Part shown: positions 480 to 60,625 of the stretch, piece by piece
How positions within the stretch are numbered: position 1 is the stretch's first letter
How the letters are laid out: each line of letters begins with the position of its first letter
DNA from: a phage
Length of the DNA stretch: 64,000 nt
Strand: one strand, 5' to 3'
Sequence record: PQ724392.1
The notes under the pieces: model-generated
Told to the model about the DNA's origin: nothing
Seen by the model: the letters and a program-made list of their open reading frames with translations, nothing else
Databases searched by the model: none
Program-made: the position numbers and the translations under genes

Positions 480-556
480 CGCACATCTCTTTTAATTTTT
501 GAATTTCACCAGCAACCATCGCACATCTCTTTTAATTTCTGAATTTCACCAGCAAC
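477..556. repeat. 40-bp tandem duplication, 2 copies, 1 mismatch
   Basis: Copy 1 477-516 and copy 2 517-556 (catcgcacatctcttttaattt[t/c]tgaatttcaccagcaac) read directly; spans dexA start codon and 3' end of upstream ORF. Confidence 0.9.
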
Positions 557-787
557 ATAGTCGGAGATAAAAATCCCTGGCTCTTCATTGTTAAAATATT
601 CAATCGCGGCCATACGTTTCCGAATAAGATTCAGTTCCAGTAAAACATAATTACCCTGCACGACGATAGTCGGATTATCTTCGAAAAATTCAACCGCGTC
701 CTGAATACCATAGATAAGATTATCTAAATCTTCTTTATGTACTTTATACATAATATGCGTCGTACCTCGCTCGTGTGATTCCAACAT
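506..787 (-). CDS. hypothetical protein
   Basis: ORF track; start probably internal Met near 751 because 787 would overlap dda; C-terminal codons lie inside the tandem duplication. Confidence 0.4.
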   Translation of the reverse strand: MLESHERGTTHIMYKVHKEDLDNLIYGIQDAVEFFEDNPTIVVQGNYVLLELNLIRKRMAAIEYFNNEEPGIFISDYVAGEIQKLKEMCDGCW

Positions 788-2072: not shown

Positions 2073-2368
2073 GCCAATTTTACTCGCTTAACATATAAAG
2101 TATCTAAAATTAATTTCAATTCTCGTGCGTGTTCTTCAGTAGGAAAAACAGTTTTTGTTTCACGCTTATCAAACCACCACTTCCTGGGAATATACCGTGT
2201 TTCAATACGTCCCATGCGTAAATAGCGGTTTGTAGTATATGAATAGTTGGCAAGTTCATAATCTGCACCCGCTTTTGTGGCGTATAAGGTAACCTTTCCA
2301 TCATACTCCAATGGGTGTTCAAAACCATCTTTATCTTTATGGACCAGCACATATGCGTAGTACATCAC
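2069..2368 (-). CDS. hypothetical protein
   Basis: 99-aa ORF whose stop overlaps dda start; no motif recognised. Confidence 0.4.
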   Translation of the reverse strand: MMYYAYVLVHKDKDGFEHPLEYDGKVTLYATKAGADYELANYSYTTNRYLRMGRIETRYIPRKWWFDKRETKTVFPTEEHARELKLILDTLYVKRVKLA

Positions 2369-2369
2369 A

Positions 2370-3113
2370 TTAACCTCTAATCAGTTTAAAAATTGACGCG
2401 TTCAAAGGCAGACCACGTTTCAGTTTAAGGCGGTCAATGAATGACAACTTATCTAAACGCTCCAGACCTTGAATAATTTTATCATACATATCGTAACGCG
2501 TTTCAGCGTCAGATGATTTCATTTTCAGACGCCAGTCAGGACCACCCATAACCATTTTCAGCCCACGTTGACTAGTTCCGATGGAAGCCATTTGTCCATG
2601 GATACGAGCCTTGACTGCAATCACAGAAGGGGTAGTATCTTTAGCGCCACTTTTATAAAGCTCTTTTAAATGTTTTTGACGCTTCTTGATTCCACGTTCA
2701 GTATCTTTAATATTTTTAACAATTTTGCGAATTTTATAATAGTCAGCAGGAGTTACTTTAAAACTATTGGGCATCTTAGAACCGCCATTAATACGCACCG
2801 CCAAACGAGTCTGTGCACGTTTAAGTTCATCAAGAGATAAATCAGCACGTAAACCGTTGTACTTAGTTTTGACAGGGATAACATTGCCTTCAATATAACC
2901 TATATCATTGTTAAAGCGTTCAAAGGAAACTTTATCTTGAGTTGAATTTTCATCAAAACGTTCACCAGAATACGCACAGAATTCCTGTTTCAAAAGATTG
3001 GCGATATACTTACTAGACAGATTGAAATCCTTGTTACGACGTTTTGCAGACGTTTTGGTATGCTCGCGACGTTTGTAAACTTTTAATTCAAACTCTTCTT
3101 TTGACATATTCAT
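2370..3113 (-). CDS. HNH-family homing endonuclease-like protein
   Basis: 247 aa; CAYSGERF ... FERFNNDIGYIEGNV resembles HNH nuclease core; basic DNA-binding-like C-terminus; inserted between mod-like genes and dda. Confidence 0.5.
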   Translation of the reverse strand: MNMSKEEFELKVYKRREHTKTSAKRRNKDFNLSSKYIANLLKQEFCAYSGERFDENSTQDKVSFERFNNDIGYIEGNVIPVKTKYNGLRADLSLDELKRAQTRLAVRINGGSKMPNSFKVTPADYYKIRKIVKNIKDTERGIKKRQKHLKELYKSGAKDTTPSVIAVKARIHGQMASIGTSQRGLKMVMGGPDWRLKMKSSDAETRYDMYDKIIQGLERLDKLSFIDRLKLKRGLPLNASIFKLIRG

Positions 3114-3248
3114 GATATTTTTCTCATCTTACGGACGATTGAATAACTCAGTACGGAATCATTATATACTATTCATCTTTTATGTACACTACTTTTTCAC
3201 CTTTAACGCTTTTATTTTTACTGTGTATAATGGTTCTAAGGTCTTTGG

Positions 3249-3863
3249 TTAGTTCAAAACAGTTAAATGCCAAACAGTATACAGGTTATTCAATGGGTGT
3301 GTTTCAATCAAGTCTACGCGGAGCGTAGTCCCAGCGGGAAACATAAACTCATCTTCATCATTAACCAGGTGCAAGTTTGACTTCCTGGTTGCTTCTGGAT
3401 ATGCACCATTGAACTCTTCAGGAGGAGCACCGCAAATCATTTTGAAGATTGCTTCCTGATAGTTATACGCATATGGTGCATTGTTTATACAGAAAATGTT
3501 CCTTGTGCCATAGAAACTGTATGATGCAAAATTTCTTGCAACCTGCCAGTCCCTGGAAAAACTCATTACACGATTGAATTCAATTGTTGCGCCAACATAT
3601 CTTAAATCTTCCAGGTATTCCATGGTTTTCTTTGATATACCACGGAACAATGCTGCCGGCGGCGCAGTATTCAGATTGTTGCGGATAATCCTGGACAAGT
3701 CTTCTTGAATCAGGTCGGGTTTATTTTCCATACACTGCCAGAGTACTGATTGCTCATTATCTGTATAAAGAGCATCAATCTCCGCTTGACATTGGTTACG
3801 AAAAGACTCACTAGAAGCGGCAGTGTCAATAATTCCATTCAAAACGTCATCAGTGTACAGCAT
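3249..3863 (-). CDS. ADP-ribosyltransferase, ModA/ModB-like
   Basis: R-S-E pattern (LFRGIS, SFS, EDEF); paralog of next gene; start moved to ATG 3863 because the promoter/leader repeat lies inside the longer ORF-track frame. Confidence 0.6.
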   Translation of the reverse strand: MLYTDDVLNGIIDTAASSESFRNQCQAEIDALYTDNEQSVLWQCMENKPDLIQEDLSRIIRNNLNTAPPAALFRGISKKTMEYLEDLRYVGATIEFNRVMSFSRDWQVARNFASYSFYGTRNIFCINNAPYAYNYQEAIFKMICGAPPEEFNGAYPEATRKSNLHLVNDEDEFMFPAGTTLRVDLIETHPLNNLYTVWHLTVLN

Positions 3864-3925
3864 TTTATTATCCTCATCAGTAGTTGATAGGAACATCTTA
3901 ACGTGTCTTATTGCTCTTGTACACA
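3864..3925 (-). promoter_or_regulatory. early promoter cassette (-35 GTGTAC, N18, -10 TAAGAT, conserved leader)
   Basis: Gene-sense reads GTGTAC-N18-TAAGAT then leader CCTATCAACTACTGATGAGGA before ATG; member of repeated cassette family. Confidence 0.45.
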
Positions 3926-4468
3926 GTCAAGAACATAATAATCACCAACAAATCCAGCATCAACTACCACGAATTTCTGGTCAACTGGAACAAACCATTC
4001 AAGCTCAGAATCAATCATGTCCATGTATTCTTCGCGCCTTAATGTAGCTGCCCGGACGGAACCAGAAGCTGTATTGAAGAATTCCAGTGGAACGTCAAGC
4101 GCGATTTTGCGCATCGCATCATGGTAACAAAAAGCTTTGGTCTGATTCAATCTGACGATAGTCCTTGTCACATATTCCATTGCAGCAAAATCCCTGGCAA
4201 TACCATAGTCTTCTGTAAAGGAGGTTACCCGTCCAAATTCAAAAGGTTGCATTGATTCTTTTGCTTCATCTAACAAATCAATCTCTTGCTGGGTTACTCC
4301 GCGCCACAAGACTGTATCGGGTATAGACAACCTTGACTTGATGATTGAGTTGACATTTGAATGCAAGGTCTTATCAACCTTTGATGTGCGGCATTCAAAT
4401 AATGAAGCTATCTCCATTTCACTAAATTTTAACTGGTTGGGTTCGGTATCAGATTTGATGATGTTCAT
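3908..4468 (-). CDS. ADP-ribosyltransferase, ModA/ModB-like
   Basis: 186 aa; R-S-E pattern (LWRGVT, SFT, ELEW); paralogous to 3249..3863. Confidence 0.6.
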   Translation of the reverse strand: MNIIKSDTEPNQLKFSEMEIASLFECRTSKVDKTLHSNVNSIIKSRLSIPDTVLWRGVTQQEIDLLDEAKESMQPFEFGRVTSFTEDYGIARDFAAMEYVTRTIVRLNQTKAFCYHDAMRKIALDVPLEFFNTASGSVRAATLRREEYMDMIDSELEWFVPVDQKFVVVDAGFVGDYYVLDCVQEQ

Positions 4469-4524
4469 AATGGTCTCTCTGTTGTAAGAAAGACCATTAT
4501 GTCATTAGGAGGGGAGTAAGTAAA

Positions 4525-4794
4525 CTACTTAAACACTCCAAGTGGAACGCCAAAGACTGCAATGTCTACGGCCATACCAATCGGAGATTGGTATGATGGA
4601 GATTGATATGATGAGTAAGAACTTTTCGATTTTATCGGGGTTTCGACTTTAATTGTCTCGGATTCAGTCTTAAGCCTTTGTAAACGATTAATTTTTTGTT
4701 GCTCGATTTCCTTATGAGCATGTTTACGGTCGATATCCAGCGCCGATGTGGGAATATTTGTTAACCAGTTCATTGTTTCACCCATGGTGCCCAT
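4525..4794 (-). CDS. hypothetical protein with Ser/Tyr-rich tail
   Basis: 89-aa ORF; KSSYSSYQSPSYQSP low-complexity segment. Confidence 0.3.
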   Translation of the reverse strand: MGTMGETMNWLTNIPTSALDIDRKHAHKEIEQQKINRLQRLKTESETIKVETPIKSKSSYSSYQSPSYQSPIGMAVDIAVFGVPLGVFK

Positions 4795-4948
4795 GGAGGT
4801 GGGTCGTCGTAATATGAGGCCAGGTCGCGTAGAACTTCCATTGGGAGGCTAAAACCGTGCTTCTGTATAATCGCATCAAGTTCGTCAACTAGGTCCACAC
4901 GGGCTTCCGTAGGAGCTTTAGGCTCTTCAAAAAGTTCAAATAAATCCA

Positions 4949-5431
4949 TTAGTAACCACCGATAGGGCCGTAACCATACATACGAGCTCGGACTTTAGTA
5001 TCGTGCATAGCTTCTTCTGTTAAAGTAAAGCGCAGACCAATATCAAAGTGTTTCCAAATCTGACGTTCGACTTCAGCAAGGTCGTCGGTAGTGGAAATCA
5101 GATATGTGCGACCTTGAAGACGTTCAGTGGCCATTTTATCTCTATCTTTATAGAAAATGGTATCTTCGCCATAAAGGTCTGGGTGACGATAGCCTTTGAT
5201 GTGCAGAGCTTCGGAAACAGTAAACGGACACCCTTCGGCAACATTAACGTTTTTTCTATGAAATACCTTCAGCATAACGTTTTCTGGCATCGTCAAGTTC
5301 ATTAATTTTGTTTCCAATGCAGTGACCGAATCCATGCCATTGTAAACCATGATAAGACATGCGGTAGCATCGTAAGGTCGTGTTTGACCTGCCGAATCAC
5401 GGACATAGAATTCTAATTCGTATACTTTCAT
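4949..5431 (-). CDS. hypothetical protein
   Basis: 160-aa ORF co-oriented with neighbours; no motif recognised. Confidence 0.4.
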
Positions 5432-5573
5432 AATGTTTTCCTCTTACCGACTAATGGACCATCAGGAACTTTATTTTCCTTGATGTACTTTTCGTTTTCT
5501 TCCATCATTTTACTGCCAATTTTCAAAAGCAAATCCAGTGCTTCTTTTGCTCGGCGTTCAGCATCTTCTTGTG

Positions 5574-5768
5574 TCATGATTTATCTCCGTAGATATCACG
5601 CATCAGTTTAAGCGCTGCTCGTTCAGTCTTCTTTTCCTGCATGGCTTTAAGCCCGTTAACGGCCCATTCTTCGGCTTCACGTTGCATTTCTTCCTCGGCC
5701 CTGGCTACCCAGGAATCATCAATCCCTGGAGTAACCAACCAATCTTTAAGCCAACTTGTAATTCTCAT
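5574..5768 (-). CDS. hypothetical protein
   Basis: 64-aa ORF; N-terminus (SWLKDWL) resembles that of next ORF. Confidence 0.3.
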
Positions 5769-6122
5769 TTAATCACACGAGCTGGAAGACGAATCACAGC
5801 TTCCCGAATCATAGGAGGAATAAGACGAATCACCGGTCCACGAACTAACTGCGGCGGCGGTGACCACAATCGAAGTAGTATCGATACTGCTTCGCGCTTG
5901 GGCTTGGGCTTGGGCTCTTTGTTCTTGCAGTCGAGTTAAACGTTTTTGTAGGTCTTCTTCTGACATTGTAGAATATAGGTCTTTTGATTTCGATTTGACC
6001 ACTTCTTCCATCATGCCGTCACCCATGTAAACATATTCTCTTAGCTTAACATCCGGCAGGCTAACCGGAACCACACCTTCACCAGGTTTAGTCTTGAATA
6101 AATTCTTGAGCCAACTAATCAT
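5769..6122 (-). CDS. hypothetical protein with Ser-rich C-terminal tail
   Basis: 117-aa ORF ending DSSYSSYDSGSCDSSSSSCD. Confidence 0.35.
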   Translation of the reverse strand: MISWLKNLFKTKPGEGVVPVSLPDVKLREYVYMGDGMMEEVVKSKSKDLYSTMSEEDLQKRLTRLQEQRAQAQAQARSSIDTTSIVVTAAAVSSWTGDSSYSSYDSGSCDSSSSSCD

Positions 6123-6316
6123 AGGAAACCTCGTTTAAATTCAACTTGACCATCATCATAACGGATTTCAATATTGAATTCTAAAGAGTCATCGTCATGC
6201 ATCATGAATGAATGTACGATAACTTCATCAAACACACCCAGACCATACTTAAAATGGACATCATGAGCAATAATTTCATCTAAAGCTTTGTTTGGTTTAA
6301 TCCAACGGTTTAACAT
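6119..6316 (-). CDS. hypothetical protein
   Basis: 65-aa ORF, stop overlaps next start. Confidence 0.35.
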   Translation of the reverse strand: MLNRWIKPNKALDEIIAHDVHFKYGLGVFDEVIVHSFMMHDDDSLEFNIEIRYDDGQVEFKRGFL

Positions 6317-6392
6317 AGTATTCTCCTCTGTAATTGAAATAATTATACCGCTTCTATTAAAAGCAAAAAGGGAACCCGAAGGTTCCCTATAA

Positions 6393-6626
6393 TTAAACTA
6401 CTGGGGTAGGCGTAAACATCGCCGCGTTCTTAGTTCGCCAATCAGCTGCACTAGACGCTACGGTGACATAAGCGGCCTTTTCGGAAGGAAAAGTCTGATA
6501 GTGTGCATTCGCAATACGATGCTCATTTGAATAGATTTCAAACGGAACAGATACTTCAACACCTTTAACTTCTTTACCTTCACCAGCTGGATGCGTAAAG
6601 GTTTTGATATTAACGAAACCACCCAT
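6393..6626 (-). CDS. soc: small outer capsid protein Soc
   Basis: 77 aa; VNIKTF ... AHYQTFPSEKAAY matches remembered T4 Soc; TATAAATA late promoter upstream. Confidence 0.8.
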   Translation of the reverse strand: MGGFVNIKTFTHPAGEGKEVKGVEVSVPFEIYSNEHRIANAHYQTFPSEKAAYVTVASSAADWRTKNAAMFTPTPVV

Positions 6627-6657
6627 AATTAACTCCTTTGTTGTTTAATTACGGGTG

Positions 6658-6665
6658 TATTTATA
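6658..6665 (-). promoter_or_regulatory. late promoter -10 element TATAAATA
   Basis: Exact TATAAATA on gene-sense strand about 30 nt upstream of soc ATG. Confidence 0.5.
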
Positions 6666-6667
6666 AC

Positions 6668-7186
6668 TTAATAACCCCGGTCCTGACGAGCAAAGTTCTC
6701 AGCGTTTTTCAGGTAATACAATTTAAAGATTTCTTCTGCAGTCAGTCCAAGGCCATGGAACATGTTCAGAACAAAGTGCAGGATATCAATCATCTCAAAT
6801 TTAATTTCGAGCTGGTCTTCGGGAGACAACTCATCAATACGACGATTACGGAATTCAGCATGTTGGACTTTCCATGGTTTCCATACACTAGATGCAGCTT
6901 TCTCGCCATTAGACATACCACCGAGAGAAGTCAGAAGTTCACGGAATTCGTCGTCGACATAATCTTTCTGGTTACGAAGCCATGCAACAACATCACCTGC
7001 AGTAGTCAATTCATCTGGATGTGAGTTATATTCTGGTTTTTCAGTAGCCAGACGAACTTGCAATGATTTCTGCATATCAAGCATAATCTGCAGCGGGTCA
7101 GTACCTTTTGTAATCGCATTGTCATAAGCTTCTTCAGCTTTATCAACACCAGCAATCAGTTGGGAACACTCGTTAAAATGAGCCAT
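6668..7186 (-). CDS. 56: dCTP pyrophosphatase gp56 (MazG-like)
   Basis: Start set at ATG 7186 (MAHFNEC...); matches remembered T4 gp56 through the C-terminal KNAENFARQDRGY. Confidence 0.75.
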   Translation of the reverse strand: MAHFNECSQLIAGVDKAEEAYDNAITKGTDPLQIMLDMQKSLQVRLATEKPEYNSHPDELTTAGDVVAWLRNQKDYVDDEFRELLTSLGGMSNGEKAASSVWKPWKVQHAEFRNRRIDELSPEDQLEIKFEMIDILHFVLNMFHGLGLTAEEIFKLYYLKNAENFARQDRGY

Positions 7187-7251
7187 TATATTTTTCCTTA
7201 TCAATTCATGTTATTTTGTATGTTAATTATATCATATTGGGTTGAAGCATA

Positions 7252-7469
7252 AATACACGGAAGGAGGATATATGCTCAAACTATCTAGTCTAATTCAAGC
7301 CATCAAAGGCAGTCGTAAGCGAACGATTCTGGTCCTTTCGATACTCTGTTTAGTTCTACTCTGGAACTTCGTTGTTGCCCCTGTTGCATTGACACATGGT
7401 GTTATATTACCAGTCATTGCACTCGAATCGGTTGTAGATGTTTCACTGGCATTAATCGGCCTTATATAG
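7252..7469 (+). CDS. small hydrophobic protein, plus-strand
   Basis: ATG 7252 preceded by AAGGAGGA; hydrophobic 72-aa product; followed by hairpin with T-tract; CATAAATA upstream. Confidence 0.45.
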
Positions 7470-8646: not shown

Positions 8647-8814
8647 CATTATACTGTAGGTTTATCGTCTTTATTCTTACGCTTTTTTGATGGGATTTGT
8701 TCAGGGCCTTTATTGACAACTGCCCCGGAAGTGGTACCTGTTGCGATATTAGTTGGGTTTCCACCTGCATCACCGGCAACCATATCTTCATTGATAAAAT
8801 CTTTGAATGTTTTC
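8647..8814 (-). CDS. small Gly-rich protein with CTS-like N-terminus
   Basis: 55-aa frame translated by hand: MKTFKDFINEDMVAGDAGGNP...; below ORF-track size cut-off. Confidence 0.3.
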
Positions 8815-8835
8815 ATAACACCCCCTTTCCGCTAT

Positions 8836-9027
8836 TTATACAATGAAGATAGCTTTATTGCCATTTGCATCAGTCACTTCATAGGTGTCTTCATGATACA
8901 ACGGAATAATCCAGGTAACACCATCATCAGCGATAACATGGATTGCTTCTTGGTCTTGCGACACGATTTCATATTCTTCAAAAATCTGGAAGACCGAAAT
9001 CTTAGAGCCCGTACACATTGCAGTCAT
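8836..9027 (-). CDS. hypothetical protein
   Basis: 63-aa ORF co-oriented. Confidence 0.35.
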   Translation of the reverse strand: MTAMCTGSKISVFQIFEEYEIVSQDQEAIHVIADDGVTWIIPLYHEDTYEVTDANGNKAIFIV

Positions 9028-9028
9028 A

Positions 9029-9388
9029 TTAACCTCGCTTCATGAAGGCATTAAAAATCTGGTCATCAATATCAGTAGGCAGTTCTTGAGCTTTAACCCA
9101 AGCCCCTTCCAGAATGTCATTTGCTTCAGTAGATATCATGACCCCAATTTCAGGGTTTCCGGTTATCCATGCTGCACAATCGCGTACATTCTTTTTATCA
9201 AATGGATAGCCACGAGTATCTTCATAAGGTCCACTCATTACCATAAATGAGCGAGCCTTTATAATAACATCATCTTTAACGATAATATAACCAATCGCCT
9301 GATTAAACCGAGGCTCACGAAATTCATAACGGGCATTACCATTATTATTGCTCACCAGTTCAAAATTCAGAAAATTATAATAACTCAT
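9029..9388 (-). CDS. hypothetical protein
   Basis: 119-aa ORF; C-terminus DDQIFNAFMKRG shared with next ORF. Confidence 0.4.
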   Translation of the reverse strand: MSYYNFLNFELVSNNNGNARYEFREPRFNQAIGYIIVKDDVIIKARSFMVMSGPYEDTRGYPFDKKNVRDCAAWITGNPEIGVMISTEANDILEGAWVKAQELPTDIDDQIFNAFMKRG

Positions 9389-44913: not shown

Positions 44914-45486
44914 TCAGCTTGTTAATTCGAGCCAATGTTTTCTGCATAAAGATACGTACGATTCATTCCCACCGACTAACACTTGCTCGCCGTCCTTTAC
45001 AGCAGCACCGTCGATTACTCTCGCGGTCATGGTTGCTTTCCGGCCGCAATGACAGACGCCCTTTAATTCAACCAGTTTATCCGAAATAGCCAGAAGTCTG
45101 GCTGAACCGGGAAATAATTGACCCCGAAAATCTGTTCTTAACCCGTAACACATAACGGGGATATTGTAATTATCAACCACTTGAGCTAACTGGTCAATTT
45201 GCTCTGGTAACAAAAATTGAGCTTCATCGACCAGGACGCAATGGATATCCTTTTGAGACTCGGCCCATTTATAGAATTCAAACAGGTTCATGTCGGCCGT
45301 TACCAGGTTTGCTTCCTGGCTAATACCAATACGTGATTTAATTTCAGATTCCGAGTCCCGATTATCAATAACAGGTTTTAGCAAAAGCACACTCATTCCA
45401 CGCTCTTTATAGGAATAAGCTGCAGTCAGCAATGAAGCTGTTTTGCCTGCATTCATTGCTGCGTAATGATAAATTAAACTCGCCAT
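44914..45486 (-). CDS. tk: thymidine kinase
   Basis: 190 aa; MASLIYHYAAMNAGKTASLL P-loop; extended match to remembered T4 Tk. Confidence 0.9.
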   Translation of the reverse strand: MASLIYHYAAMNAGKTASLLTAAYSYKERGMSVLLLKPVIDNRDSESEIKSRIGISQEANLVTADMNLFEFYKWAESQKDIHCVLVDEAQFLLPEQIDQLAQVVDNYNIPVMCYGLRTDFRGQLFPGSARLLAISDKLVELKGVCHCGRKATMTARVIDGAAVKDGEQVLVGGNESYVSLCRKHWLELTS

Positions 45487-51990: not shown

Positions 51991-52219
51991 CGTCACGTTT
52001 CCATGATTGGTTAAAAATATCACTCATTAAAAATTCAAGTCTATTTTCCAATGAAGGGCTTTCACTACTAGAAACTTGAACCATGTAGTCAGAAATAGGT
52101 CGGAACATATCCAAGTCAGTTTCTAAATCATCTTTGATTTTCTCTTCTGGTGTTCCAGTGTCATAGGAATACAGATAAGAATCACATGACTCGGATTTAA
52201 TATAAATTGCAATACTCAT
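51983..52219 (-). CDS. hypothetical protein
   Basis: 78-aa ORF co-oriented. Confidence 0.35.
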   Translation of the reverse strand: MSIAIYIKSESCDSYLYSYDTGTPEEKIKDDLETDLDMFRPISDYMVQVSSSESPSLENRLEFLMSDIFNQSWKRDDE

Positions 52220-52803
52220 TTACGGCATTCCTCAATAAAGGAGTTCAATGTATTTTTCTTAGTGATATCGTCATATACCTTTTTAACTTTAGAAATACGA
52301 AAAGGTACTTCAATAACCATAGTCCATAAAAATGATGCAATAAGCCCAGCGAGAGCAGTAGAAAAGCACGCACCCATTACAGCTACAGGTGCTTCATTTT
52401 TGCCTGTCAAGAAAAACCACAGGAATGGTAAAAATAAGATTCCAGCCCAGGCATAAAACCTGGAACAAATTAACTTATCAAATTCATCACTCCAGGTACG
52501 AAATCCATATTTCTTGCTATAAGAAATTAATGGGTCGGGTGTCTGTTCTTTGAGCGGTTCTGGTTGATGCCCATTAATGATGTATCCCATTTTATATTCC
52601 TTAATTAAAAGCTCTTTCACATGACGATTGCATCGCGACCAATCAACATTTTCCACCTTGATTCCTTCATCACCATCATCAAGGTTCGCCCAATATTTTT
52701 TGGTAATCATAAATTCATCTCTTGATACAATTATACCTGCATTTTCTGCCCGGCGGATGAAGTTTACATCAACACCCATGCACCCGGGCTCATAAAGGGC
52801 CAT
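52216..52803 (-). CDS. membrane protein, FIxEC C-terminal family
   Basis: 195 aa; two hydrophobic helices; ends FIEECRK. Confidence 0.4.
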   Translation of the reverse strand: MALYEPGCMGVDVNFIRRAENAGIIVSRDEFMITKKYWANLDDGDEGIKVENVDWSRCNRHVKELLIKEYKMGYIINGHQPEPLKEQTPDPLISYSKKYGFRTWSDEFDKLICSRFYAWAGILFLPFLWFFLTGKNEAPVAVMGACFSTALAGLIASFLWTMVIEVPFRISKVKKVYDDITKKNTLNSFIEECRK

Positions 52804-53489
52804 TACCAGCCCTCCATAGGGAATTCCAGATATACTTGAGCATTAACGCGGATTTCATTTGTAATCTTTTTAACACGGTCAGTATTACGAGACACACGAC
52901 CAAACCAGCGCCACCCGTTACTTACTGCGCGAGAACCTGTATGCCATGTCTGCCAATCAAACTGGAGCAATGTGCGGTCAGGAGCATCCCACTTGGTTAA
53001 TTCATTGGACTCAATTTTTTCCAGAACTTCTTTATGCCACTGACGATAGATAAGTTCGCCTTCAGGAATCTGACTAAATTGCGCAGTTCCGGTTGCAAAA
53101 TAAGTAGGACACACATCAGCGTTAACAAGACCAAGAATATGTTCAGAATGGTAACGAGGATTATCATAATCAGGTTGCCCTGCAGTAATAAAGTGTTGAC
53201 CAACCGGAATATCCGGGCGTGGTACATCGTCATGGTGATAACCTGGGATAGCAGGATACCAACCAGGCATCAGCATATGAACCCGAGAATCAAATACAAC
53301 CTGGTCGGTGTTCCAATCATCCGGCAAACTCATGATAAAGCTACGAGTAATAGGACCGCCATTGTCAAAAGCGAAAGCCAATGAGCTGTTGAAGAACATA
53401 GTTTCGTTTTTGATTTTATCATTAGAAATTTTACCAGCGAAACTGCCTACTGCATGAGCTTGAGAATTAAAAGTTTTTGGACCGTTCAT
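52803..53489 (-). CDS. hypothetical protein
   Basis: 228-aa ORF; His-rich patches (YHHDD, YHSEH); function unknown. Confidence 0.4.
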   Translation of the reverse strand: MNGPKTFNSQAHAVGSFAGKISNDKIKNETMFFNSSLAFAFDNGGPITRSFIMSLPDDWNTDQVVFDSRVHMLMPGWYPAIPGYHHDDVPRPDIPVGQHFITAGQPDYDNPRYHSEHILGLVNADVCPTYFATGTAQFSQIPEGELIYRQWHKEVLEKIESNELTKWDAPDRTLLQFDWQTWHTGSRAVSNGWRWFGRVSRNTDRVKKITNEIRVNAQVYLEFPMEGW

Positions 53490-53548
53490 AATATTTTCCT
53501 CATTGATTGTGGGACCATTGTGTCATAGTCCCACTTAGATGTACATAC

Positions 53549-54508
53549 TTATTTTGTGAAAGGACGAATTAAATGCTGGTTAGCTTTGAAACGTTTAACA
53601 TAGTCTTCGTGACCCAGGGTGTTGTACATATTAACCACTTCCTGGTAATGTTCCCAGGCATACTCGCGGAACCATCCAGAAGTAATGGAGGTGCAGACTT
53701 TTTCCAGCGCAATATGGAAGCTCACGGATGGAGAGATATTGAACTCATTGGGAACCTGCGAACGCTCCAGAGCGAGTACACATGCTTCTTCATAAACCCC
53801 TGCCAGTTTAATAATCTCAGGGAGTGCTTCAAATTTTTCACGCGAGGTCATAACTTCTGAATCATCCTTCATATAGAACTTATATGCAGGCTTATCAGCA
53901 AGCGCCACGGCCTCGTGGATGGAGTCATGGTCAAGGGTATAGATTGTATCATTAAAGAAAGTTTTCTTGCCCACGTCTAGTTTAGGGTGGCTATACGACA
54001 ATGTTTCTGCCTGGCGCTGCAGCATGATTTTCTGCAGTTCATCATTAAGAACAACACCCTTATTGCGAAGGTAATTAATATGACTCATGGTCTTCAGGAA
54101 GAATGGATTGTTCTTCAGGTAACGATGAGACAGTTTAATTGCCAGACAAATATCAGGAGTCGCCCAATAGAAACCTGTAAGACGGTCTTTCTTAATATGA
54201 TTTTCAGCGTATTTCAAGAGACGATAACTTGAGGTGAAATCTTCATCTTGAAGCTCACCAGTAATTTCTCGTACGTTAGTCAGGGCACGGACAATATAAG
54301 CTTCAAAATAGGTTTCTTTTCCATTGTACATACATTTAAAAGCTTGGACATCAGGGTTATCCACAGGAACATGAGCACCGAACATACGTGCTTTAAAGTG
54401 GTTCCAGGAGCCCTGGTCAGCGATAAAGTCCCAATCAGAGTTTTCAATTTTCTGACTTTCAATCAGACCAGCGTTATGTAATGCACGAGAACCAATAACT
54501 AACATCAT
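53549..54508 (-). CDS. hypothetical protein
   Basis: 319-aa ORF co-oriented; no motif recognised. Confidence 0.45.
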   Translation of the reverse strand: MMLVIGSRALHNAGLIESQKIENSDWDFIADQGSWNHFKARMFGAHVPVDNPDVQAFKCMYNGKETYFEAYIVRALTNVREITGELQDEDFTSSYRLLKYAENHIKKDRLTGFYWATPDICLAIKLSHRYLKNNPFFLKTMSHINYLRNKGVVLNDELQKIMLQRQAETLSYSHPKLDVGKKTFFNDTIYTLDHDSIHEAVALADKPAYKFYMKDDSEVMTSREKFEALPEIIKLAGVYEEACVLALERSQVPNEFNISPSVSFHIALEKVCTSITSGWFREYAWEHYQEVVNMYNTLGHEDYVKRFKANQHLIRPFTK

Positions 54509-54699
54509 AATATTTTCCTCATTAGTAAAGACGAGTTACTTCATATTTTCCAAGTGCCGATTTTTTCGCTTCAATTCGTGAGGCAGCAAGATTGGCGGCC
54601 TCTAGTGAAGAAAATTGAACCACTTGAGAAGTATTCTGTCTTACTCCACCTTGCGGGTGAGTGACAAAAACAATAAAAACATTATACATAATATTTTCC

Positions 54700-54900
54700 T
54701 CAAATAATACCGTATGCGTAAATATCTCTTTTAATGCAGGAAACTACTTCTTCCAGAGAATCACAAACACGTTCTGTGACGCCTGCGTAATCACCACTGA
54801 TGGTTACTTTAATGCCATCAGAAACTTCCTGGAGATTAACCTCCAGTTGGTTGACTTTGGCTTCGTTCAGAACTTTGATTAATTCGTTTGCGATAGACAT
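54700..54900 (-). CDS. hypothetical protein
   Basis: 66-aa ORF directly downstream of promoter cassette. Confidence 0.4.
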   Translation of the reverse strand: MSIANELIKVLNEAKVNQLEVNLQEVSDGIKVTISGDYAGVTERVCDSLEEVVSCIKRDIYAYGII

Positions 54901-54958
54901 TTTTATTCTCCTGTTCTGATAACGTGATTGTCATCAGTTGATAGGAGTATAGTAACAC
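54901..54958 (-). promoter_or_regulatory. early promoter (-35 GTATAC, -10 TACTAT)
   Basis: GTATAC-N18-TACTAT then ACTCCTATCAACTGATGACAA leader. Confidence 0.45.
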
Positions 54959-54964
54959 AGTTTT

Positions 54965-55309
54965 TTAGACTTGTATACTGCTTCTACAATATTCTAAAAA
55001 TAATTTATCGTTGTCTACCTTATCCCAACGACGCCAAGATGGATTCCAGACCAGAGCGTTGTCACCGCAATCATTGAGCTTAAAGTGGTCGTAGTACATA
55101 GCTATATGTCTGGTTTCGTCACCAGAGAACCCCAGTATATGCTCACCGTGGGTATGATACATATGATGATGCATTGAGAGGTCGCATTTGTAAAACATCT
55201 CACGTTTACCACGAACGAACAAGAAGGCTTGCCCATTCATATAGAATTCTTTATCTGTTTTCAAAAGATATTTGAATACCGAATCTTTATGCATAATTCC
55301 TCCTACCAC
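54965..55309 (-). CDS. His-rich hypothetical protein
   Basis: 114 aa with MHHHMYHTHGEH cluster. Confidence 0.4.
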   Translation of the reverse strand: MVGGIMHKDSVFKYLLKTDKEFYMNGQAFLFVRGKREMFYKCDLSMHHHMYHTHGEHILGFSGDETRHIAMYYDHFKLNDCGDNALVWNPSWRRWDKVDNDKLFLEYCRSSIQV

Positions 55310-55324
55310 ATCCTTGTGATTAAA

Positions 55325-55552
55325 TTATTTTCCTAACGAAATACGAGTAGGTTTTTTACCGAAATATTCTTCATAGGAACCATCTAAACGACCCGCTTTA
55401 GACCGACAATACGAATCATACTTTTTGTAATAAGTCAACTCGTTATTATAACGTGGATGTCTATCAGCCATAATAATACTTAATGGCCAACCTTTGGCAT
55501 AATCACGAAGACCATTTATTTTACGAATATATCTTTTCTTTAATTTTAGCAT
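55325..55552 (-). CDS. hypothetical basic protein
   Basis: 75-aa ORF co-oriented. Confidence 0.35.
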   Translation of the reverse strand: MLKLKKRYIRKINGLRDYAKGWPLSIIMADRHPRYNNELTYYKKYDSYCRSKAGRLDGSYEEYFGKKPTRISLGK

Positions 55553-55770
55553 GAGCTCGGGTGCCAGATTTTACCGTCAGGTTGAGCAACGAAGGTACGA
55601 CCAGCTTCTTCACCATAACAAGAGCTGTTCAGCCAGTCTTCAAGACGAACCTCACCATCATATTCGTCAAGCTCAATACCGAAATCTTGAGCGTTAGCCA
55701 TATCTTTTACTTTCTTATACAATGCAGCCAGTTCAAGTGCTGCTTTTTCTAATTCATTAATATCAGACAT
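55546..55770 (-). CDS. small protein, WxSSSxxC-tail family member
   Basis: 74 aa ending KIWHPSSC. Confidence 0.4.
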   Translation of the reverse strand: MSDINELEKAALELAALYKKVKDMANAQDFGIELDEYDGEVRLEDWLNSSCYGEEAGRTFVAQPDGKIWHPSSC

Positions 55771-55779
55771 TTTTATTCC

Positions 55780-55992
55780 TTAGCATTCGTAAGAGGATGA
55801 TACCCAAGAGGTACCACTAATAGTAATACAACCGTTATAAAGCGTGATATGTCGTTCTAAGTCACGAACACCATCAATGTAGATATCAGCTTCTTCGCGT
55901 TCTTCTTTACAAATCTGGATAACGTTTTCAATAGCTGCCGCGGCAGTACGGATTGCACAATCTAATTCACGAGACATATAATTCCTTAACAT
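55780..55992 (-). CDS. small protein, WxSSSxxC-tail family member
   Basis: 70 aa ending TSWVSSSYEC. Confidence 0.45.
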   Translation of the reverse strand: MLRNYMSRELDCAIRTAAAAIENVIQICKEEREEADIYIDGVRDLERHITLYNGCITISGTSWVSSSYEC

Positions 55993-56267
55993 TCAGAAGA
56001 GGAGGACACCCAACCGCCATTTTCCAGGTCAGTTGTATAGTCATGAGTGTTAACAATAGCCCATTCAGGATGGCCATGTTCTTCCCAATGGGCAAGGTCA
56101 GCTTTCAAGGCACCAGGAGAATAATAGTCACCGCCCATACCGCGAGCAGGGTATATATTAAAATGAGTCTCATATTTGTTTGCAATTTCCTCGGCACGAC
56201 GAATAGCTTTATGGATATCATTTACTGCGTTAGCCAGTTCTTTATTTTTACGGTAATCATTCATCAT
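55986..56267 (-). CDS. small protein, WxSSSxxC-tail family member
   Basis: 93 aa ending GGWVSSSSEC. Confidence 0.45.
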   Translation of the reverse strand: MMNDYRKNKELANAVNDIHKAIRRAEEIANKYETHFNIYPARGMGGDYYSPGALKADLAHWEEHGHPEWAIVNTHDYTTDLENGGWVSSSSEC

Positions 56268-56276
56268 AGCGTTTCC

Positions 56277-56567
56277 TTAGCACATTGCCGAAGAGGAGAC
56301 CCAAGCACCAACTGTAACGACACCGTTTTCAACTTCGCCGCCGTTGTTTTCAATTTCATCTTTAAACCACTGGGAGCACTCATAACCGACAGGATAATAT
56401 GTACGGCCTGAACCATAATCACCGGTACCGAATTGGATACCATATTCATCTGCGATTTCTTCACAGTGTTTTTCAATTTCAGAGGTCTTATTTAGAAGAG
56501 AATAGATAGCTTTTTCTGCAGATTTCTCATCATAATACTTGGGGATAGCAATTTCAATTTTATTCAT
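56277..56567 (-). CDS. small protein, WxSSSxxC-tail family member
   Basis: 96 aa ending GAWVSSSAMC. Confidence 0.45.
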   Translation of the reverse strand: MNKIEIAIPKYYDEKSAEKAIYSLLNKTSEIEKHCEEIADEYGIQFGTGDYGSGRTYYPVGYECSQWFKDEIENNGGEVENGVVTVGAWVSSSAMC

Positions 56568-56917
56568 GATTTACATTCCTTAATAAAGGTTTCAAGGTCA
56601 TTACGTTTTGTTTTGTCTAGGAACTTATTATACTCAGCCATTGCTGAAGCATATCTCTTCCGACTAGGAGCATTCACGGCGTTTGTGTGACAAATATCAT
56701 ACACAACCGGGATAAAATAAGCCACAACAGCCGGAGCGATTATCATAAAGAAACCCATCTCAATGGGCATGACTCCCTCGATTGCAGCCATAACCGTGGT
56801 CATTACCAGACCAACCAAACCACCGAGCATACCGGTGACAATTCCCAATAATAAATTGCCGCCAATATCATATTCAGCCAATTGATAAACATGTGATGCA
56901 AGACTAGGCCGTTCCAT
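56564..56917 (-). CDS. membrane protein, FIxEC C-terminal family
   Basis: Start moved to internal Met; hydrophobic helices; ends FIKECKS. Confidence 0.4.
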   Translation of the reverse strand: MERPSLASHVYQLAEYDIGGNLLLGIVTGMLGGLVGLVMTTVMAAIEGVMPIEMGFFMIIAPAVVAYFIPVVYDICHTNAVNAPSRKRYASAMAEYNKFLDKTKRNDLETFIKECKS

Positions 56918-57299
56918 TACGAACCTCCTTAATAAATTCTTCGGCACATTTAATTTTGTGCTCTTCTTGTAGGGAAACACATTTTTGTTCCCACTCTTTA
57001 ACTCGCCCACGATATCCTTTATTCATATGATTTTGATGCCACACATTTATCAATATCATACTCAGGACCGTAATAAAAGGAGCTGCGATTATTAGCGCCC
57101 AGGCAACTCCAACACTGATGATATCCATATCCCCACAAAGCACCATCATTATAACCCCAACGATGCACATGGACAAAGCTCCAAATGGAGGCATAAGGTC
57201 TTTATCAATCTTGTCTGCGTATACAAATTTTTCTGGTTTACTTGGCAGATATAGCGTTCGCATTTTGAACCCCTTTAGCATATTCACGACATTCAGCAA
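56904..57299 (-). CDS. membrane protein, FIxEC-like C-terminal family
   Basis: 131 aa; two hydrophobic helices; ends EEFIKEVRNGTA. Confidence 0.4.
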   Translation of the reverse strand: MLNVVNMLKGFKMRTLYLPSKPEKFVYADKIDKDLMPPFGALSMCIVGVIMMVLCGDMDIISVGVAWALIIAAPFITVLSMILINVWHQNHMNKGYRGRVKEWEQKCVSLQEEHKIKCAEEFIKEVRNGTA

Positions 57300-57810
57300 T
57301 AAAACGATTAAGCTTACGTTTCCGTTTACGACCCTCTAATGTATACTCAGCCGCCAAATCAAGAAGCTCATCTTTATCATAATTTTTAATATCAGTATAA
57401 GTTGGGCGGCGGTCAACCATTCCAAAGTGGTCACCATTTTCCAACATCAAATAACACACCAAATGGTCATCATCGTCCGCATTAATAAGCTGCTTATAAT
57501 CACTTGGTTCATTTAACGCATACACAGAATAACTCAGCCCAGCGAATTCCACTCGTTGAATACCCAGATTTACGTCAATAATTTCCAAGGCATCTGCAAA
57601 AGAAAGGTCTTCAGCTAAAGCAAAAATAAAAGGCAATTTGGTAGTATCGCCGCGACTTGTTGTTCTTCTTAAGAAATCATTGGAATAGCCCAAGTCGCGT
57701 CGGATTCTATAAAGAACTGTGTTAGTTTCAGTGGCAAGACCACTACCGCCAAACCATTCCACATTTGATAAAAGATTATCATATAAAGTCATAATTTTCT
57801 CCTCTCCCAA
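57238..57810 (-). CDS. hypothetical protein, FIxEC C-terminal family
   Basis: 190 aa; C-terminus NRFIAECREYAKGV. Confidence 0.4.
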   Translation of the reverse strand: MGEEKIMTLYDNLLSNVEWFGGSGLATETNTVLYRIRRDLGYSNDFLRRTTSRGDTTKLPFIFALAEDLSFADALEIIDVNLGIQRVEFAGLSYSVYALNEPSDYKQLINADDDDHLVCYLMLENGDHFGMVDRRPTYTDIKNYDKDELLDLAAEYTLEGRKRKRKLNRFIAECREYAKGVQNANAISAK

Positions 57811-57834
57811 TTAGGGGGCTTTGCCCCCTTTATC

Positions 57835-58428
57835 TTACTTAAGTGAATTGATGTATTCTTCAATGTCAGCGGACGTGGTATCCACACCAACCTGTGGACC
57901 TTTGAAAGTTTCAACACGCATCAAGGTGTCTTCAATATCAATCTTAGTCAATGCAGCGATTTCAACAACATCATCTGCAGTCGCAATACCCAGGGCAGAT
58001 ACCTTACGGGTTTCGCGGATGTATTCCAGTTTAACAGCTAGTTCCTGACGAGAATCATCCAGCTCTTTAACTTTCAATTTAATTTCATTACGCATTTCAA
58101 CATAATCGTCTGCCTTCTTACGAAGTTGTTTAGCAGTGCGACGATACAGGAGACCCAGTTTAGCATGGACCTGGACATCCGCGCCATCAGCAATCAGTTT
58201 GCGGATTTCACGCTCTTTTGAGGCGGCGAGTTGGTCTTTTTCATTCGCTAACTCGCGGATGCGTTTTTCTTCATTAACAGACTTAACGTGGGCGGTCTGG
58301 AGCTCAGTAATCTTGTCAATCAGGGTAGACGCCGCTTGAGTATATTGGTCTTCAATAGACAGGTTTTTTGCCATTGCAGTACCCAGTTTGGAGCGGATGA
58401 ATTCAACAAGTTTCTTTAAAGTATTCAT
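57835..58428 (-). CDS. PspA/IM30-like coiled-coil protein (tentative)
   Basis: 197 aa, predicted all-helical with long heptad-like charged repeats; resemblance to PspA is by eye only. Confidence 0.35.
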
Positions 58429-58889: not shown

Positions 58890-59333
58890 TTAAATTTCAA
58901 ATTCTTTGCGGAAGTTGGAAGCATAAGACTGAACTGATGCTTTGTTGAATCCAAACTCACGCACAATCATATCAATAACAGCTCTGCGAGCAGCACCATT
59001 AGACATATTAACAGTTTTGAACATATCATAGCATAAATCTTTGTTGCTCATACCGGAGCGTTTAGGTGCCTTACGTTCAGCTTTTGGTTCAGCTTTAGGA
59101 GTAGGTTTAACTTCTGGTTTAACCTGTCCATCATTCAGACCTTTAAAAATTTTACCTGCCAGAGTTGCCAGTTTAGCAGCTTCGCCACGAGTGATACCAA
59201 ATACTGCCGGGTTAAATGAAATACCTTCAGCTGCCAGACGTTTGAAGAACATACGTGCTGCGGATTGTGCTTCAGCTTCAGAAGAGTTGTTTAATGCCAG
59301 CTTAACGTACTTAACCAGTTTTGAAGTTTTCAT
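58890..59333 (-). CDS. hypothetical protein, paralog of 59415..59840
   Basis: 147 aa; shared C-terminal block GAARRA.ID..V ... VQSYASNFRK. Confidence 0.45.
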   Translation of the reverse strand: MKTSKLVKYVKLALNNSSEAEAQSAARMFFKRLAAEGISFNPAVFGITRGEAAKLATLAGKIFKGLNDGQVKPEVKPTPKAEPKAERKAPKRSGMSNKDLCYDMFKTVNMSNGAARRAVIDMIVREFGFNKASVQSYASNFRKEFEI

Positions 59334-59414: not shown

Positions 59415-59840
59415 TTATTTTTGAGCTTTGCGGAAGTTGGAAGCATATGACTGAACAACAGTCTTTTTGATATCATGGGTGTTAACCAGAACATCAATCA
59501 GGGCGCGTCGAGCTGCACCATCTGCCATATCAATTTCTGCAAATGCCTGGAAGCAAATGTCACGAGCATTACCAGATTTAGACTGGATTTTTTCTTCTTT
59601 AACTTCTTCAATTGGGAATTCAATCATTTCAGCTTGGATTAATTCAATGATAGATTCTTTTGACTGTTTGGTGTTTACCTTCAGTTCAGAATTAAGGGAC
59701 TTAGCGATGGCAACAATCTGGGTTGAAGTCAGATGAATAAGTGCATCTTCACGAATGCAGATTTCACATACTTCGTCGGCAACCATTTTGTTAGTGATGC
59801 GGGTAACAGAGAATGCAGAAGTCAGGGTCAGGAAGTTCAT
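59415..59840 (-). CDS. hypothetical protein, paralog of 58890..59333
   Basis: Start set at ATG 59840 (MNFLTLTS...) because promoter cassette lies inside the longer ORF-track frame. Confidence 0.45.
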   Translation of the reverse strand: MNFLTLTSAFSVTRITNKMVADEVCEICIREDALIHLTSTQIVAIAKSLNSELKVNTKQSKESIIELIQAEMIEFPIEEVKEEKIQSKSGNARDICFQAFAEIDMADGAARRALIDVLVNTHDIKKTVVQSYASNFRKAQK

Positions 59841-59925
59841 TTTATTTCTCCAAAGTTTTGTTTGATTCAGTGTGTAACTCAGTATGGAATCATTATGCAT
59901 CCAGTCAATTCGGATGTACACTACT
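59841..59925 (-). promoter_or_regulatory. early promoter cassette (-35 GTGTAC, -10 CATAAT, long conserved leader)
   Basis: GTGTAC-N18-CATAAT then GATTCCATACTGAGTTACACACTGAATCAAACAAAACTTTGGAGAAATAAA. Confidence 0.5.
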
Positions 59926-59981: not shown

Positions 59982-60536
59982 TTAGTTCTTATAAAAGCGG
60001 AACGGATTTATATGAAAGGCGAGCATAGCCTTAGGGATTGGTCGGGACAGAAGACTCTTGAGCTTCCAGCCACAATAAACGCGCAGATAAAAGGTGATTC
60101 CACCGACCTTAAGATAAGGAACAGAAGCAAAAACACCCCAGGCATTATCCGTCCACATCCAGAGCCAGCCATGGTGAGCTTTGTCTGGGGAGCCGGATTC
60201 AACATCAGGATTACCTTTATAATGGAATTCTGAATTGCAATCACGACCAAGCTTGTGGTAAGCAAAATTGTATGCTTTATTTCGCCAGAGCCAGGCTACT
60301 CGTTGGAAGTAAACACCTAACGGCCATTTTCGGATTTTTGACCAACGTTCGACATGACCCCGGTCGCCATCAATCGGATTGTCATATGTCATCATCCAAT
60401 CAAATCCGAACGGAAGTTTACCAGTCTTTTTATTATGGAATGGAACTACAAATGGAGCCAGGATAACGGCCAGAATCATGGAGATAAAATCCAGCGGAAC
60501 TAACAGAATCCAACTCAAATATTTTAACAGTTTCAT
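59982..60536 (-). CDS. membrane protein
   Basis: Likely start MKLLKYLSWILLVPLD; N-terminal hydrophobic helices; TATAAATC late-like element upstream. Confidence 0.4.
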   Translation of the reverse strand: MKLLKYLSWILLVPLDFISMILAVILAPFVVPFHNKKTGKLPFGFDWMMTYDNPIDGDRGHVERWSKIRKWPLGVYFQRVAWLWRNKAYNFAYHKLGRDCNSEFHYKGNPDVESGSPDKAHHGWLWMWTDNAWGVFASVPYLKVGGITFYLRVYCGWKLKSLLSRPIPKAMLAFHINPFRFYKN

Positions 60537-60560
60537 ACGTTTCTCTTTAGTTGATTTATA

Positions 60561-60588
60561 AAAAAGCCCCAACCTTTCGGAAGGGGCT
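60561..60588 (-). terminator. stem-loop terminator
   Basis: AGCCCC-loop-GGGGCT followed by TTTTTT on gene-sense strand. Confidence 0.5.
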
Positions 60589-60625
60589 ATACCTTGTCGG
60601 GGTTCCACCTGCAAGGCAAGTGTTC

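Follow-up and report, generated by a model that had tools for sequence, protein, structure and literature searches.

A C-terminal FIxxCR box common to otherwise dissimilar early accessory proteins encoded downstream of e.6 in T4-like phages

In the 64,000-nucleotide stretch of phage DNA analyzed here (sequence record PQ724392.1; hereafter the window), several short genes encode proteins that end in nearly the same residues, which raises the question of whether these proteins descend from one ancestor or have only their ends in common. The window comes from a T4-type phage of the genus Gaprivervirus (SP18-like); Escherichia phage ECML-359 and Shigella phage SP18 match its positions 52000-58000 with 97% and 92% identity, respectively. 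The preliminary description of this DNA had named four such genes, here called A to D, and had read them as a dispersed membrane-protein family that arose by repeated duplication of an exclusion or host-interaction function. By position and PHROG family, A corresponds to e.2, B to e.3, C to e.4, and D to the e.5 slot. The common ending (hereafter the box, or the FIxxCR tail) appears from the sequences to be a short linear motif common to unrelated proteins, a known kind of feature, and docking is the best-supported of the mechanisms proposed for it.

Across the six frames of the 64 kb, the pattern FI.E[CV][KR] was found exactly four times, in each case no more than 16 residues from the stop of A, B, C, or D. 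By composition, 0.006 C-terminal matches were expected among the 128 minus-strand open reading frames (ORFs), and within-protein shuffles (n = 2000) gave a maximum of one. All four ORFs named earlier were present on the minus strand, and their common C-terminal motif was confirmed, but a fifth copy (FLEYCR) had been overlooked. On an 11-residue position-specific scoring matrix (PSSM), all five genes scored at least 10 bits within about 30 residues of the stop; the tail of the fifth gene reached 12.5 bits, compared with at most 2.1 bits for non-members. All the tail genes lie on the minus strand between the lysozyme gene e and nudE on one side and e.6 on the other, and they make up a single co-oriented block, which begins directly downstream of e.6 and extends in the direction of nudE and e. 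These five neighbors, which encode three small membrane proteins and two soluble proteins, are early genes, and their tail copies begin 43 to 5032 nucleotides after the e.6 stop.

The e.6 neighborhoods of 13 annotated phages (SP18, T4, RB69, QL01, two Klebsiella phages of different types, HMGUkp2, Serratia X20, two Aeromonas phages, an Enterobacter phage, a Providencia phage, and Citrobacter CfP1) and 46 IMG/VR contigs were collected, and 60 loci of diverse T4-like phages were compared. In the 251,589 residues of same-strand ORFs from these loci, [FWY]-[IVL]-x-x-C-[RK] was found 175 times within 26 residues of a stop and three times internally. The motif generalized to Φ-[E/N]-x-[FWY]-[IV]-x-x-C-[RK], and the box consensus was hydrophobic(-3)-[E/N](-2)-x-[F/W/Y](0)-[I/V](+1)-x-x-C(+4)-[R/K](+5). 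Among 148 unique DNA contexts, to which all residue and codon counts for the box refer, position -3 was L, I, F, or V in 127, position -2 was E, N, or D, position 0 was F (135), W (10), or Y (3), position +1 was I (110), V (29), or L (9), position +4 was C, and position +5 was R (131) or K (17). The carrier families scored 12.5-24.7 bits on the PSSM, whereas the best of 53 other gene families scored 2.1 bits.

The box was also confined in position. There were 221 C-terminal matches at 10 bits or more, 219 of them downstream of e.6 and two upstream. Related phages had been proposed as a place to look for copy-number variation, and the number of copies indeed varied, from one to seven per locus, with no locus lacking a copy. 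In 14 of the 15 loci listed, the first copy began 0-56 nucleotides past the e.6 stop; the exception was Enterobacter phage vB_EclM-UFV01, in which it began after 1227 nucleotides. In that phage, the gene in the e.5 slot (8657-9124 of its locus, L009) is shortened to 155 residues and has no tail, and its counterpart in a close relative (L048, 7656-8321) has 221 residues and ends in ...FINYCRGQIAK.... The shortened gene is probably due to a frameshift or a sequencing error. A C-terminal match of another kind was set aside: the thymidine kinase C-terminus YVSLCRK(HW...) (44941-44958; also in T4 tk) fits the regular expression, but it scores below 10 bits and lies about 7 kb outside the block, and it was regarded as a chance match.

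The tails of T4 itself are e.3 ...EFVIDCRKIK, e.4 ...FVKESRCKSQS, and e.5 ...FVKECREYVKAITIPSK, each running to the stop. The expectation that the motif would be conserved in homologs was therefore borne out, in T4 e.3, e.4, and e.5 and across the 60 loci. In all 14 families compared, conservation was higher in the tail than in the body, with mean identities of, for example, 0.54 versus 0.22. When 11 diverse e.5-slot proteins were aligned, the only invariant residues were M1, N94, F164, C168, and R169; the last three are the F, C, and R of the box, so three of the five invariant residues lie within it. The box is the most conserved part of each family examined, is restricted to C-termini, and is confined to the gene block downstream of e.6.

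The e.2 gene of T4 (NC_000866, 9653-9961 of its locus) is truncated inside the first transmembrane (TM) region. Its product of 102 residues lacks the second TM segment and the tail, and it matches phrog_2203 (E = 7.5e-42) over profile positions 1-103 only. About 160 nucleotides of non-coding DNA separate the end of T4 e.2 from nudE, and in three Tequatrovirus-like contigs (L027-L029), e.2 encodes 162 residues ending in ...FITECRKLK.

We considered whether the conservation resides in the peptide or in the DNA that encodes it. In the 148 contexts, F was encoded by TTT (98) and TTC (37), C by TGT (80) and TGC (68), and R by AGA (46), CGT (37), AGG (21), CGA (12), CGC (12), and CGG (3). Every synonymous codon is used and the tails are joined by no DNA repeat; the box is therefore selected as a peptide, at the protein level, and not for an overlapping ribosome-binding site. 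The opposite explanation is that the tail codons are kept as the Shine-Dalgarno (SD) sequence for translation initiation of the tightly packed downstream gene, with the peptide as a by-product. It draws on the x-E codons of A, B, and C, which spell GAGGA, AAGGA, and AAGGAGG 6-9 nucleotides before the ATG of the overlapping downstream gene, and on a similar arrangement in T4 e.4 and e.5. However, the SD core falls inside the motif in only 39 of the 148 unique instances, and the position that would encode it, +3 (E), is the most variable of the box, being E, Y, G, S, D, Q, or M, whereas F, I/V, C, and R occur in every synonymous codon, six Arg codons included. The motif of D (GCTGAA) contains no SD sequence, with the AAGGGG SD for C lying farther on; the SD of T4 e.3 sits in the R-K codons; and the distance from motif to stop ranges from 0 to 25 residues. 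This explanation is largely refuted, and we regard it as scarcely credible. The idea that the motif keeps a constant distance from the next start codon downstream was likewise rejected, as distances derived by hand from the gene coordinates span 17 to 40 nucleotides.

The same codon diversity bears on a second DNA-level explanation, in which the common 3' end serves as micro-homology for cassette shuffling in a hyperplastic region and is passively carried. The region is highly plastic: about 3.7 kb with about 12 genes lies between e.3 and e.2 in the window, RB69, SP18, and QL01 and is absent from T4, and the e.3 tail forms the left edge of this insertion/deletion. Its right edge, however, is not a tail, and the codon diversity makes nucleotide identity too low for homologous exchange. 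Moreover, no DNA repeat family joins the four window tails, whereas the 3' ends of another gene family in the block, described below, do form one, and at the amino acid level the tail is the slowest-evolving part within each family. A recombination origin of the box is thus highly improbable.

BLAST clustering (alignments of at least 40 residues) placed the carriers of the box in about 20 separate clusters. Profiles of these families were compared by HHalign with the tails present and with the tails removed. For e.3 versus e.4 (B versus C), the probability went from 95.4% (104 columns, tails present) to 75% (92 columns, tails removed). The B/C alignment is colinear, and the two have a segment H-x-N-x-x-N...R-x-R after TM2 in common, which indicates that B and C are full-length paralogs. 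Other pairs behaved differently. The A membrane module matched two other small TM families at 90-96% over 53-65 columns with the tail and at 4.1% and 0.2% without it, and its match to e.3 (93.5%, 17 columns) fell to 1.2%. D versus the T4-type e.5 fell from 94% over 163 columns to 13%, the two having a Y-S-x-x-x-x-N motif and the gene slot in common, and the fifth gene versus a 95-residue soluble family ending in FIKYCRG fell from 90% to 54%. All remaining between-class pairs had a probability of at most 8% after tail removal. Several body classes can be told apart: the two-TM small proteins (e.3/e.4); other small TM proteins, grouped with the C-terminal membrane module of e.2 (A); and the soluble proteins (D and the fifth gene).

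The paralogy proposed earlier therefore stands for B and C but not for A versus B and C or for D versus A, B, and C, in which similarity covers the last 11-17 columns and vanishes with the tail. The preliminary description had itself held that detecting no paralogy beyond the last few residues would count against it, and for the pairs involving A and D this is essentially what was found. Repeated duplication is upheld for the pair B and C, and it probably applies within the small-TM classes, but it does not extend to the whole tail set, in which A, D, and the fifth gene have just the tail in common.

A single ancient family, in which one ancestor was repeatedly duplicated and the bodies diverged past recognition until the constrained tail alone could be aligned, would explain several of these observations. 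B and C are demonstrable paralogs over their full length; A, B, and C have a common architecture of TM hairpin, charged helix, and box; the 53-65-column matches of the A membrane module reach other small TM families; a copy number of one to seven is what a duplicating family would show; and PHROG cross-matches chain the families together (B with phrog_2203, E = 0.0033; C with phrog_2330, E = 0.0038; T4 e.3 with phrog_2604, E = 0.007). However, D, the fifth gene product, and several families of other phages are soluble proteins of 72-326 residues with unrelated bodies, the similarity between classes does not survive removal of the tail, and the match between A and B is confined to those 17 columns. 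A B+C profile searched against 1.84 billion proteins retrieved only six cluster representatives and did not reach the other classes; three additional full-length sequences from that search all carried the tail. We therefore consider descent of all carriers from one ancestor unlikely.

The five genes are listed in Table 1. Of the gene extents given earlier, the ends of A and B were correct and those of C and D had been miscut; following the annotation of the related phage SP18, we set the starts of C and D at 57263 (MRTLY) and 57792 (MTLYD).

Table 1. Tail-bearing genes of the window and their upstream neighbor; C-terminal ends are given up to the stop
Feature	Coordinates	Strand	Product	C-terminal end and tail	Motif codons
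A, e.2 homolog	52216-52803	minus	195 aa	...NSFIEECRK; tail NTLNSFIEECRK	52222-52239
Fifth tail gene	54965-55309	minus	109-114 aa, soluble	FLEYCR; end DKLFLEYCRSSIQV; tail DNDKLFLEYCRSSIQV	54983-55000
B, e.3 homolog	56564-56917	minus	117 aa	...ETFIKECKS; tail NDLETFIKECKS	56570-56587
C, e.4 homolog	56904-57263	minus	119 aa	...FIKEVRNGTA; EEFIKEVRNGTA; CAEEFIKEVRNGTA	56919-56936
D, e.5 slot, directly after e.6	57238-57792	minus	184 aa, soluble	NRFIAECREYAKGVQNANAISAK; RKLNRFIAECREYAKGVQNANAISAK; FIAECREYAKGVQNANAISAK	57286-57303
e.6, conserved upstream neighbor of the block	57835-58428	minus	candidate PspA/Vipp1-like long-helix protein

A matched phrog_2203 (E = 3.8e-65) with residues 32-195 on profile positions 1-166, as a full-length member of the e.2 family. 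It consists of an N-terminal soluble domain, which is 53% identical to that of T4 e.2, TM segments at 116-134 and about 140-168, and a basic tail. B belongs to the e.3 family (phrog_2330, E = 2.4e-45; T4 e.3, 2.9e-57), with TM segments at 22-40 and 54-72. Its AlphaFold2 model, of low confidence (mean predicted local distance difference test score, pLDDT, 59), is a helical hairpin in which TM2 runs on as a single helix to the C-terminus. C belongs to the e.4 family (phrog_2604, E = 3.6e-45; T4 e.4, 1.5e-70), with TM segments at 26-44 and 54-72, and in its box, Val replaces Cys; close relatives of C carry a precomputed Pfam PF26873 assignment, whereas C itself had no match in our local Pfam copy. 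D matched phrog_8788 (E = 9e-111) and, over residues 81-116 only, the T4 e.5 family phrog_2607 (E = 0.0021). The fifth gene matched phrog_9796 (E = 3.5e-75). The TM segments come from a Kyte-Doolittle scan with a 19-residue window, in which neither D nor the fifth gene product had one. The hydrophobic helices reported for three of the genes were thus recovered as two segments each in A, B, and C, whereas D and the fifth gene product are soluble; the carriers do not form one membrane-protein family. Pfam, NCBIfam, and PDB sequence searches with A-D and the e.5 profile returned nothing informative, and homolog searches with B and C found close relatives only.

Having found the same tail on different bodies, in about 20 clusters between which similarity is lost once the tails are removed, we asked what the tail might do. 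In a helical tail, the spacing -3/0/+1/+4 would bring L/I, F, I/V, and C together on a single face, followed by a basic residue, and the box would stand at the end of a charged helix; this one-face hydrophobic spacing together with the Cys and the basic residue makes a docking helix the most likely reading of the tail. We tentatively favor, at somewhat less than even confidence, a reading in which the box serves fast-evolving early accessory proteins as a short linear motif, a C-terminal helix for docking in the cytoplasm. In A, B, and C, the tail comes after the second TM segment and is rich in K and R; the positive-inside rule would thus place it on the cytoplasmic side. The conserved cytoplasmic tail described earlier is secure as regards conservation, and its side of the membrane is predicted from this rule. 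The same tail also occurs on carriers that have no TM segment and are soluble. The tails may bind one common partner or may bundle with each other, and in either case soluble members, D for example, would be tied to A, B, and C in the inner membrane.

A candidate for the common partner is e.6, which is present in 1111 phage records. A profile of 12 e.6 sequences searched against the PDB placed cyanobacterial Vipp1 on top (E = 0.0075), with residues 1-141 aligned in register to residues 1-143. Pfam PspA_IM30 (PF04012) was matched by two of the 12 e.6 orthologs (best E = 1.9e-4), and the window e.6 gave no match to it at E up to 0.01. The AlphaFold2 model of e.6 (pLDDT 73.5) has helices at 2-21, 25-80, and 86-145, which form an N-terminal helix and a long hairpin, followed by short C-terminal helices. 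The eight top Foldseek matches of this model were all Vipp1 or PspA structures, with weak E values of 3.5e-3 to 5e-2. The identification of e.6 as a PspA/Vipp1 protein is plausible but not established. PspA homologs typically co-occur with small TM partners, whose genes typically adjoin those of PspA (PMC11237479), which makes e.6 a reasonable, though speculative, candidate partner of the tails. The idea that the tail proteins act on e.6 as small membrane partners act on bacterial PspA is a speculative analogy. Its fullest form, in which T4-like phages encode their own PspA/Vipp1 (ESCRT-III-superfamily) scaffold, e.6, and rapidly diversifying adaptors, some anchored in the membrane and some soluble and varying in copy number, all plug into e.6 or into each other via the FIxxCR tail, we regard as doubtful. 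If it were true, e.6 and the tail adaptors would be a modular phage system that remodels, protects, or gates the host inner membrane during infection.

Several observations weigh against the docking helix and its link to e.6. No docking partner was identified, the structure predictions having covered monomers only. The pLDDT of the B model gives weak support to a helical state of the tail, and the near-invariant Cys is not accounted for by a simple hydrophobic contact. The adjacency of e.6 is weak evidence of a functional link, because synteny is generally conserved in T4-like genomes. The e.6 C-terminus (EYINSLK), which was tried as a sixth tail and rejected, scored 1.2 bits on the tail PSSM (rank 2 of the 53 non-member families) and gives no evidence of tail mimicry. 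In the e.4 family, the Cys position holds V, I, S, or M, and e.4 of T4 and RB69 has a Cys two residues later.

The invariant Cys followed by Arg or Lys, the strictly C-terminal location, and the form C-R-x-stop, with two residues after the Cys, in 37 of 148 instances would also suit a C-terminal signal for turnover or modification, in which a host or phage protease or a Cys-Arg modifying enzyme recognizes the box and so times the removal or activation of early proteins. However, as many as 25 residues can separate the box from the C-terminus, unlike degrons that read terminal residues or the carboxylate, and the -3/0/+1/+4 spacing resembles a helix face and not an extended recognition peptide. 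The box is also not known to resemble ssrA-type or MuA-type ClpX tags. Such a signal therefore seems very unlikely. Two other possible functions were examined and dropped. The T4 prohead-protease site (I-x-E, then cleavage) does not fit, as the Glu at +3 is not conserved, and membrane proteins are not known to be prohead cargo. A membrane-targeting amphipathic helix of the MinD/FtsA type is also unlikely, to judge from the few hydrophobic residues and the often acidic residues at +2 and +3.

As a docking helix, the box would resemble the clamp-binding tails of T4 gp43, gp33, and gp55 and the MIT-interacting motif (MIM) helices of ESCRT-III, in which short terminal amphipathic peptides on unrelated bodies bind one hub. 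The FIxxCR box differs from these in its sequence pattern, in its invariant Cys, and in that all its carriers lie in one gene block. The closest known genes are the T4 ORFs e.2-e.5 (between e and segB; PHROGs 2203, 2330, 2604, and 2607/8788; for e.4, also Pfam PF26873). A, B, and C are clear members of e.2, e.3, and e.4, D is a divergent protein in the slot of e.5, whose profile it matches with the tail present, and T4 e.3, e.4, and e.5 bear the same tail; the family libraries keep these ORFs as separate hypothetical families, and T4 e.2, unlike A, has no tail. A literature search on the T4 e.x genes and on phage-encoded PspA, in which the motif itself was not searched for, found no paper on these genes.

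The partners of PspA (PspB, PspC, LiaI-LiaF-TM, and PspM) are small inner-membrane proteins with cytoplasmic segments that adjoin a PspA/IM30-like gene and recruit or regulate PspA (PMC11237479). The window resembles this arrangement in its two-TM small proteins just downstream of the PspA/Vipp1-like e.6. It differs in that soluble proteins bear the tail too and in that the homology of e.6 is only moderately supported, and a Pfam scan of A-D at E up to 1 gave no match to the PspB, PspC, or LiaI-LiaF-TM models; the likeness would be a functional analogy and not membership. Bacteriophage homologs are not mentioned in the comparative study on phage shock proteins (the PSP system; PMC11237479), and when this study and a review of ESCRT-III were searched for phage and virus terms, no phage-encoded membrane-stress or membrane-remodeling module was mentioned.

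The exclusion function suggested earlier, or a role in lysis inhibition, would place these genes beside the superinfection-exclusion and lysis-control proteins Imm, Sp, RI, and holin T of T4 and lambdoid SieB, which likewise are small early phage membrane proteins in accessory regions. When A-D were scanned against Pfam, neither a holin nor an Imm model was matched, and the one SieB match (PF14163, with B), at 11.5 bits against a cut-off of 26 (E = 0.23), is noise. The Pfam and PHROG matches of A included no holin model, the PHROG label being "membrane protein" only, and the label "holin" on the A ortholog in Escherichia phage EAWsc9 is without supporting evidence.

The genes e.2-e.6, which T4-like phages conserve, lack an assigned function, even in T4. 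As the only invariant feature of at least five unrelated bodies, the box offers a handle for finding a common partner and for assigning a function to the block, and if e.6 is that partner, the block would be a phage-encoded membrane-stress or membrane-remodeling module. More generally, a short linear motif can outlive all other sequence similarity in fast-evolving phage accessory genes.

The surroundings of the block yielded some further observations. The short intergenic stretch from e.6 to the gene in the e.5 slot contains a G+C-rich stem-loop (AGGGGGCTTTGCCCCCT; 57813-57829), and T4 has a similar hairpin (GGGGCTTCGGCCCC) in the same place, just after the e.6 stop. The element, perhaps a terminator or one that acts in RNA processing or stability, may set e.6 apart from the tail-gene block. 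Two conserved T4-like accessory genes flank the block on the minus strand, one encoding a 319-residue protein with DUF7277 and DUF7275 (53549-54508) and the other a 210-residue membrane protein with DUF7338 (59982-60614). The adjacent minus-strand genes 58890-59333 and 59415-59921 encode proteins with a common C-terminal domain, ...DM..GAARRA.ID..V......K..VQSYASNFRK, and are likely tandem paralogs. Their orthologs in EAWsc9 (PQ341120.1) carry the labels "H15 domain" and "rho-N domain", and orthologs within 1484-7300 of the locus of that phage are labeled, among others, "holin", "antitoxin", "virB3", "MotA-ExbB domain", "ubiquitinyl hydrolase 1", "malate synthase", and "transposase". None of the labels in 1484-7300 was backed by Pfam, PHROG, or NCBIfam scans of the window proteins, and these small-ORF labels look like spurious automatic annotation.

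Finally, a tandem family of small soluble proteins is encoded on the minus strand at 55546-55770, 55780-55992, 55986-56267, and 56277-56567. These proteins end, right before the stop, in W-[VL]-S-S-S-x-x-C or ...WHPSSC. Of the four, three fall in phrog_899, and the 3' ends of their genes form a DNA direct repeat (D1). The same endings are also present in RB69, QL01, HMGUkp2, Serratia X20, and Enterobacter phages. One block thus holds two interleaved families with Cys-containing C-terminal motifs, the FIxxCR tails and the WVSSSxxC endings.

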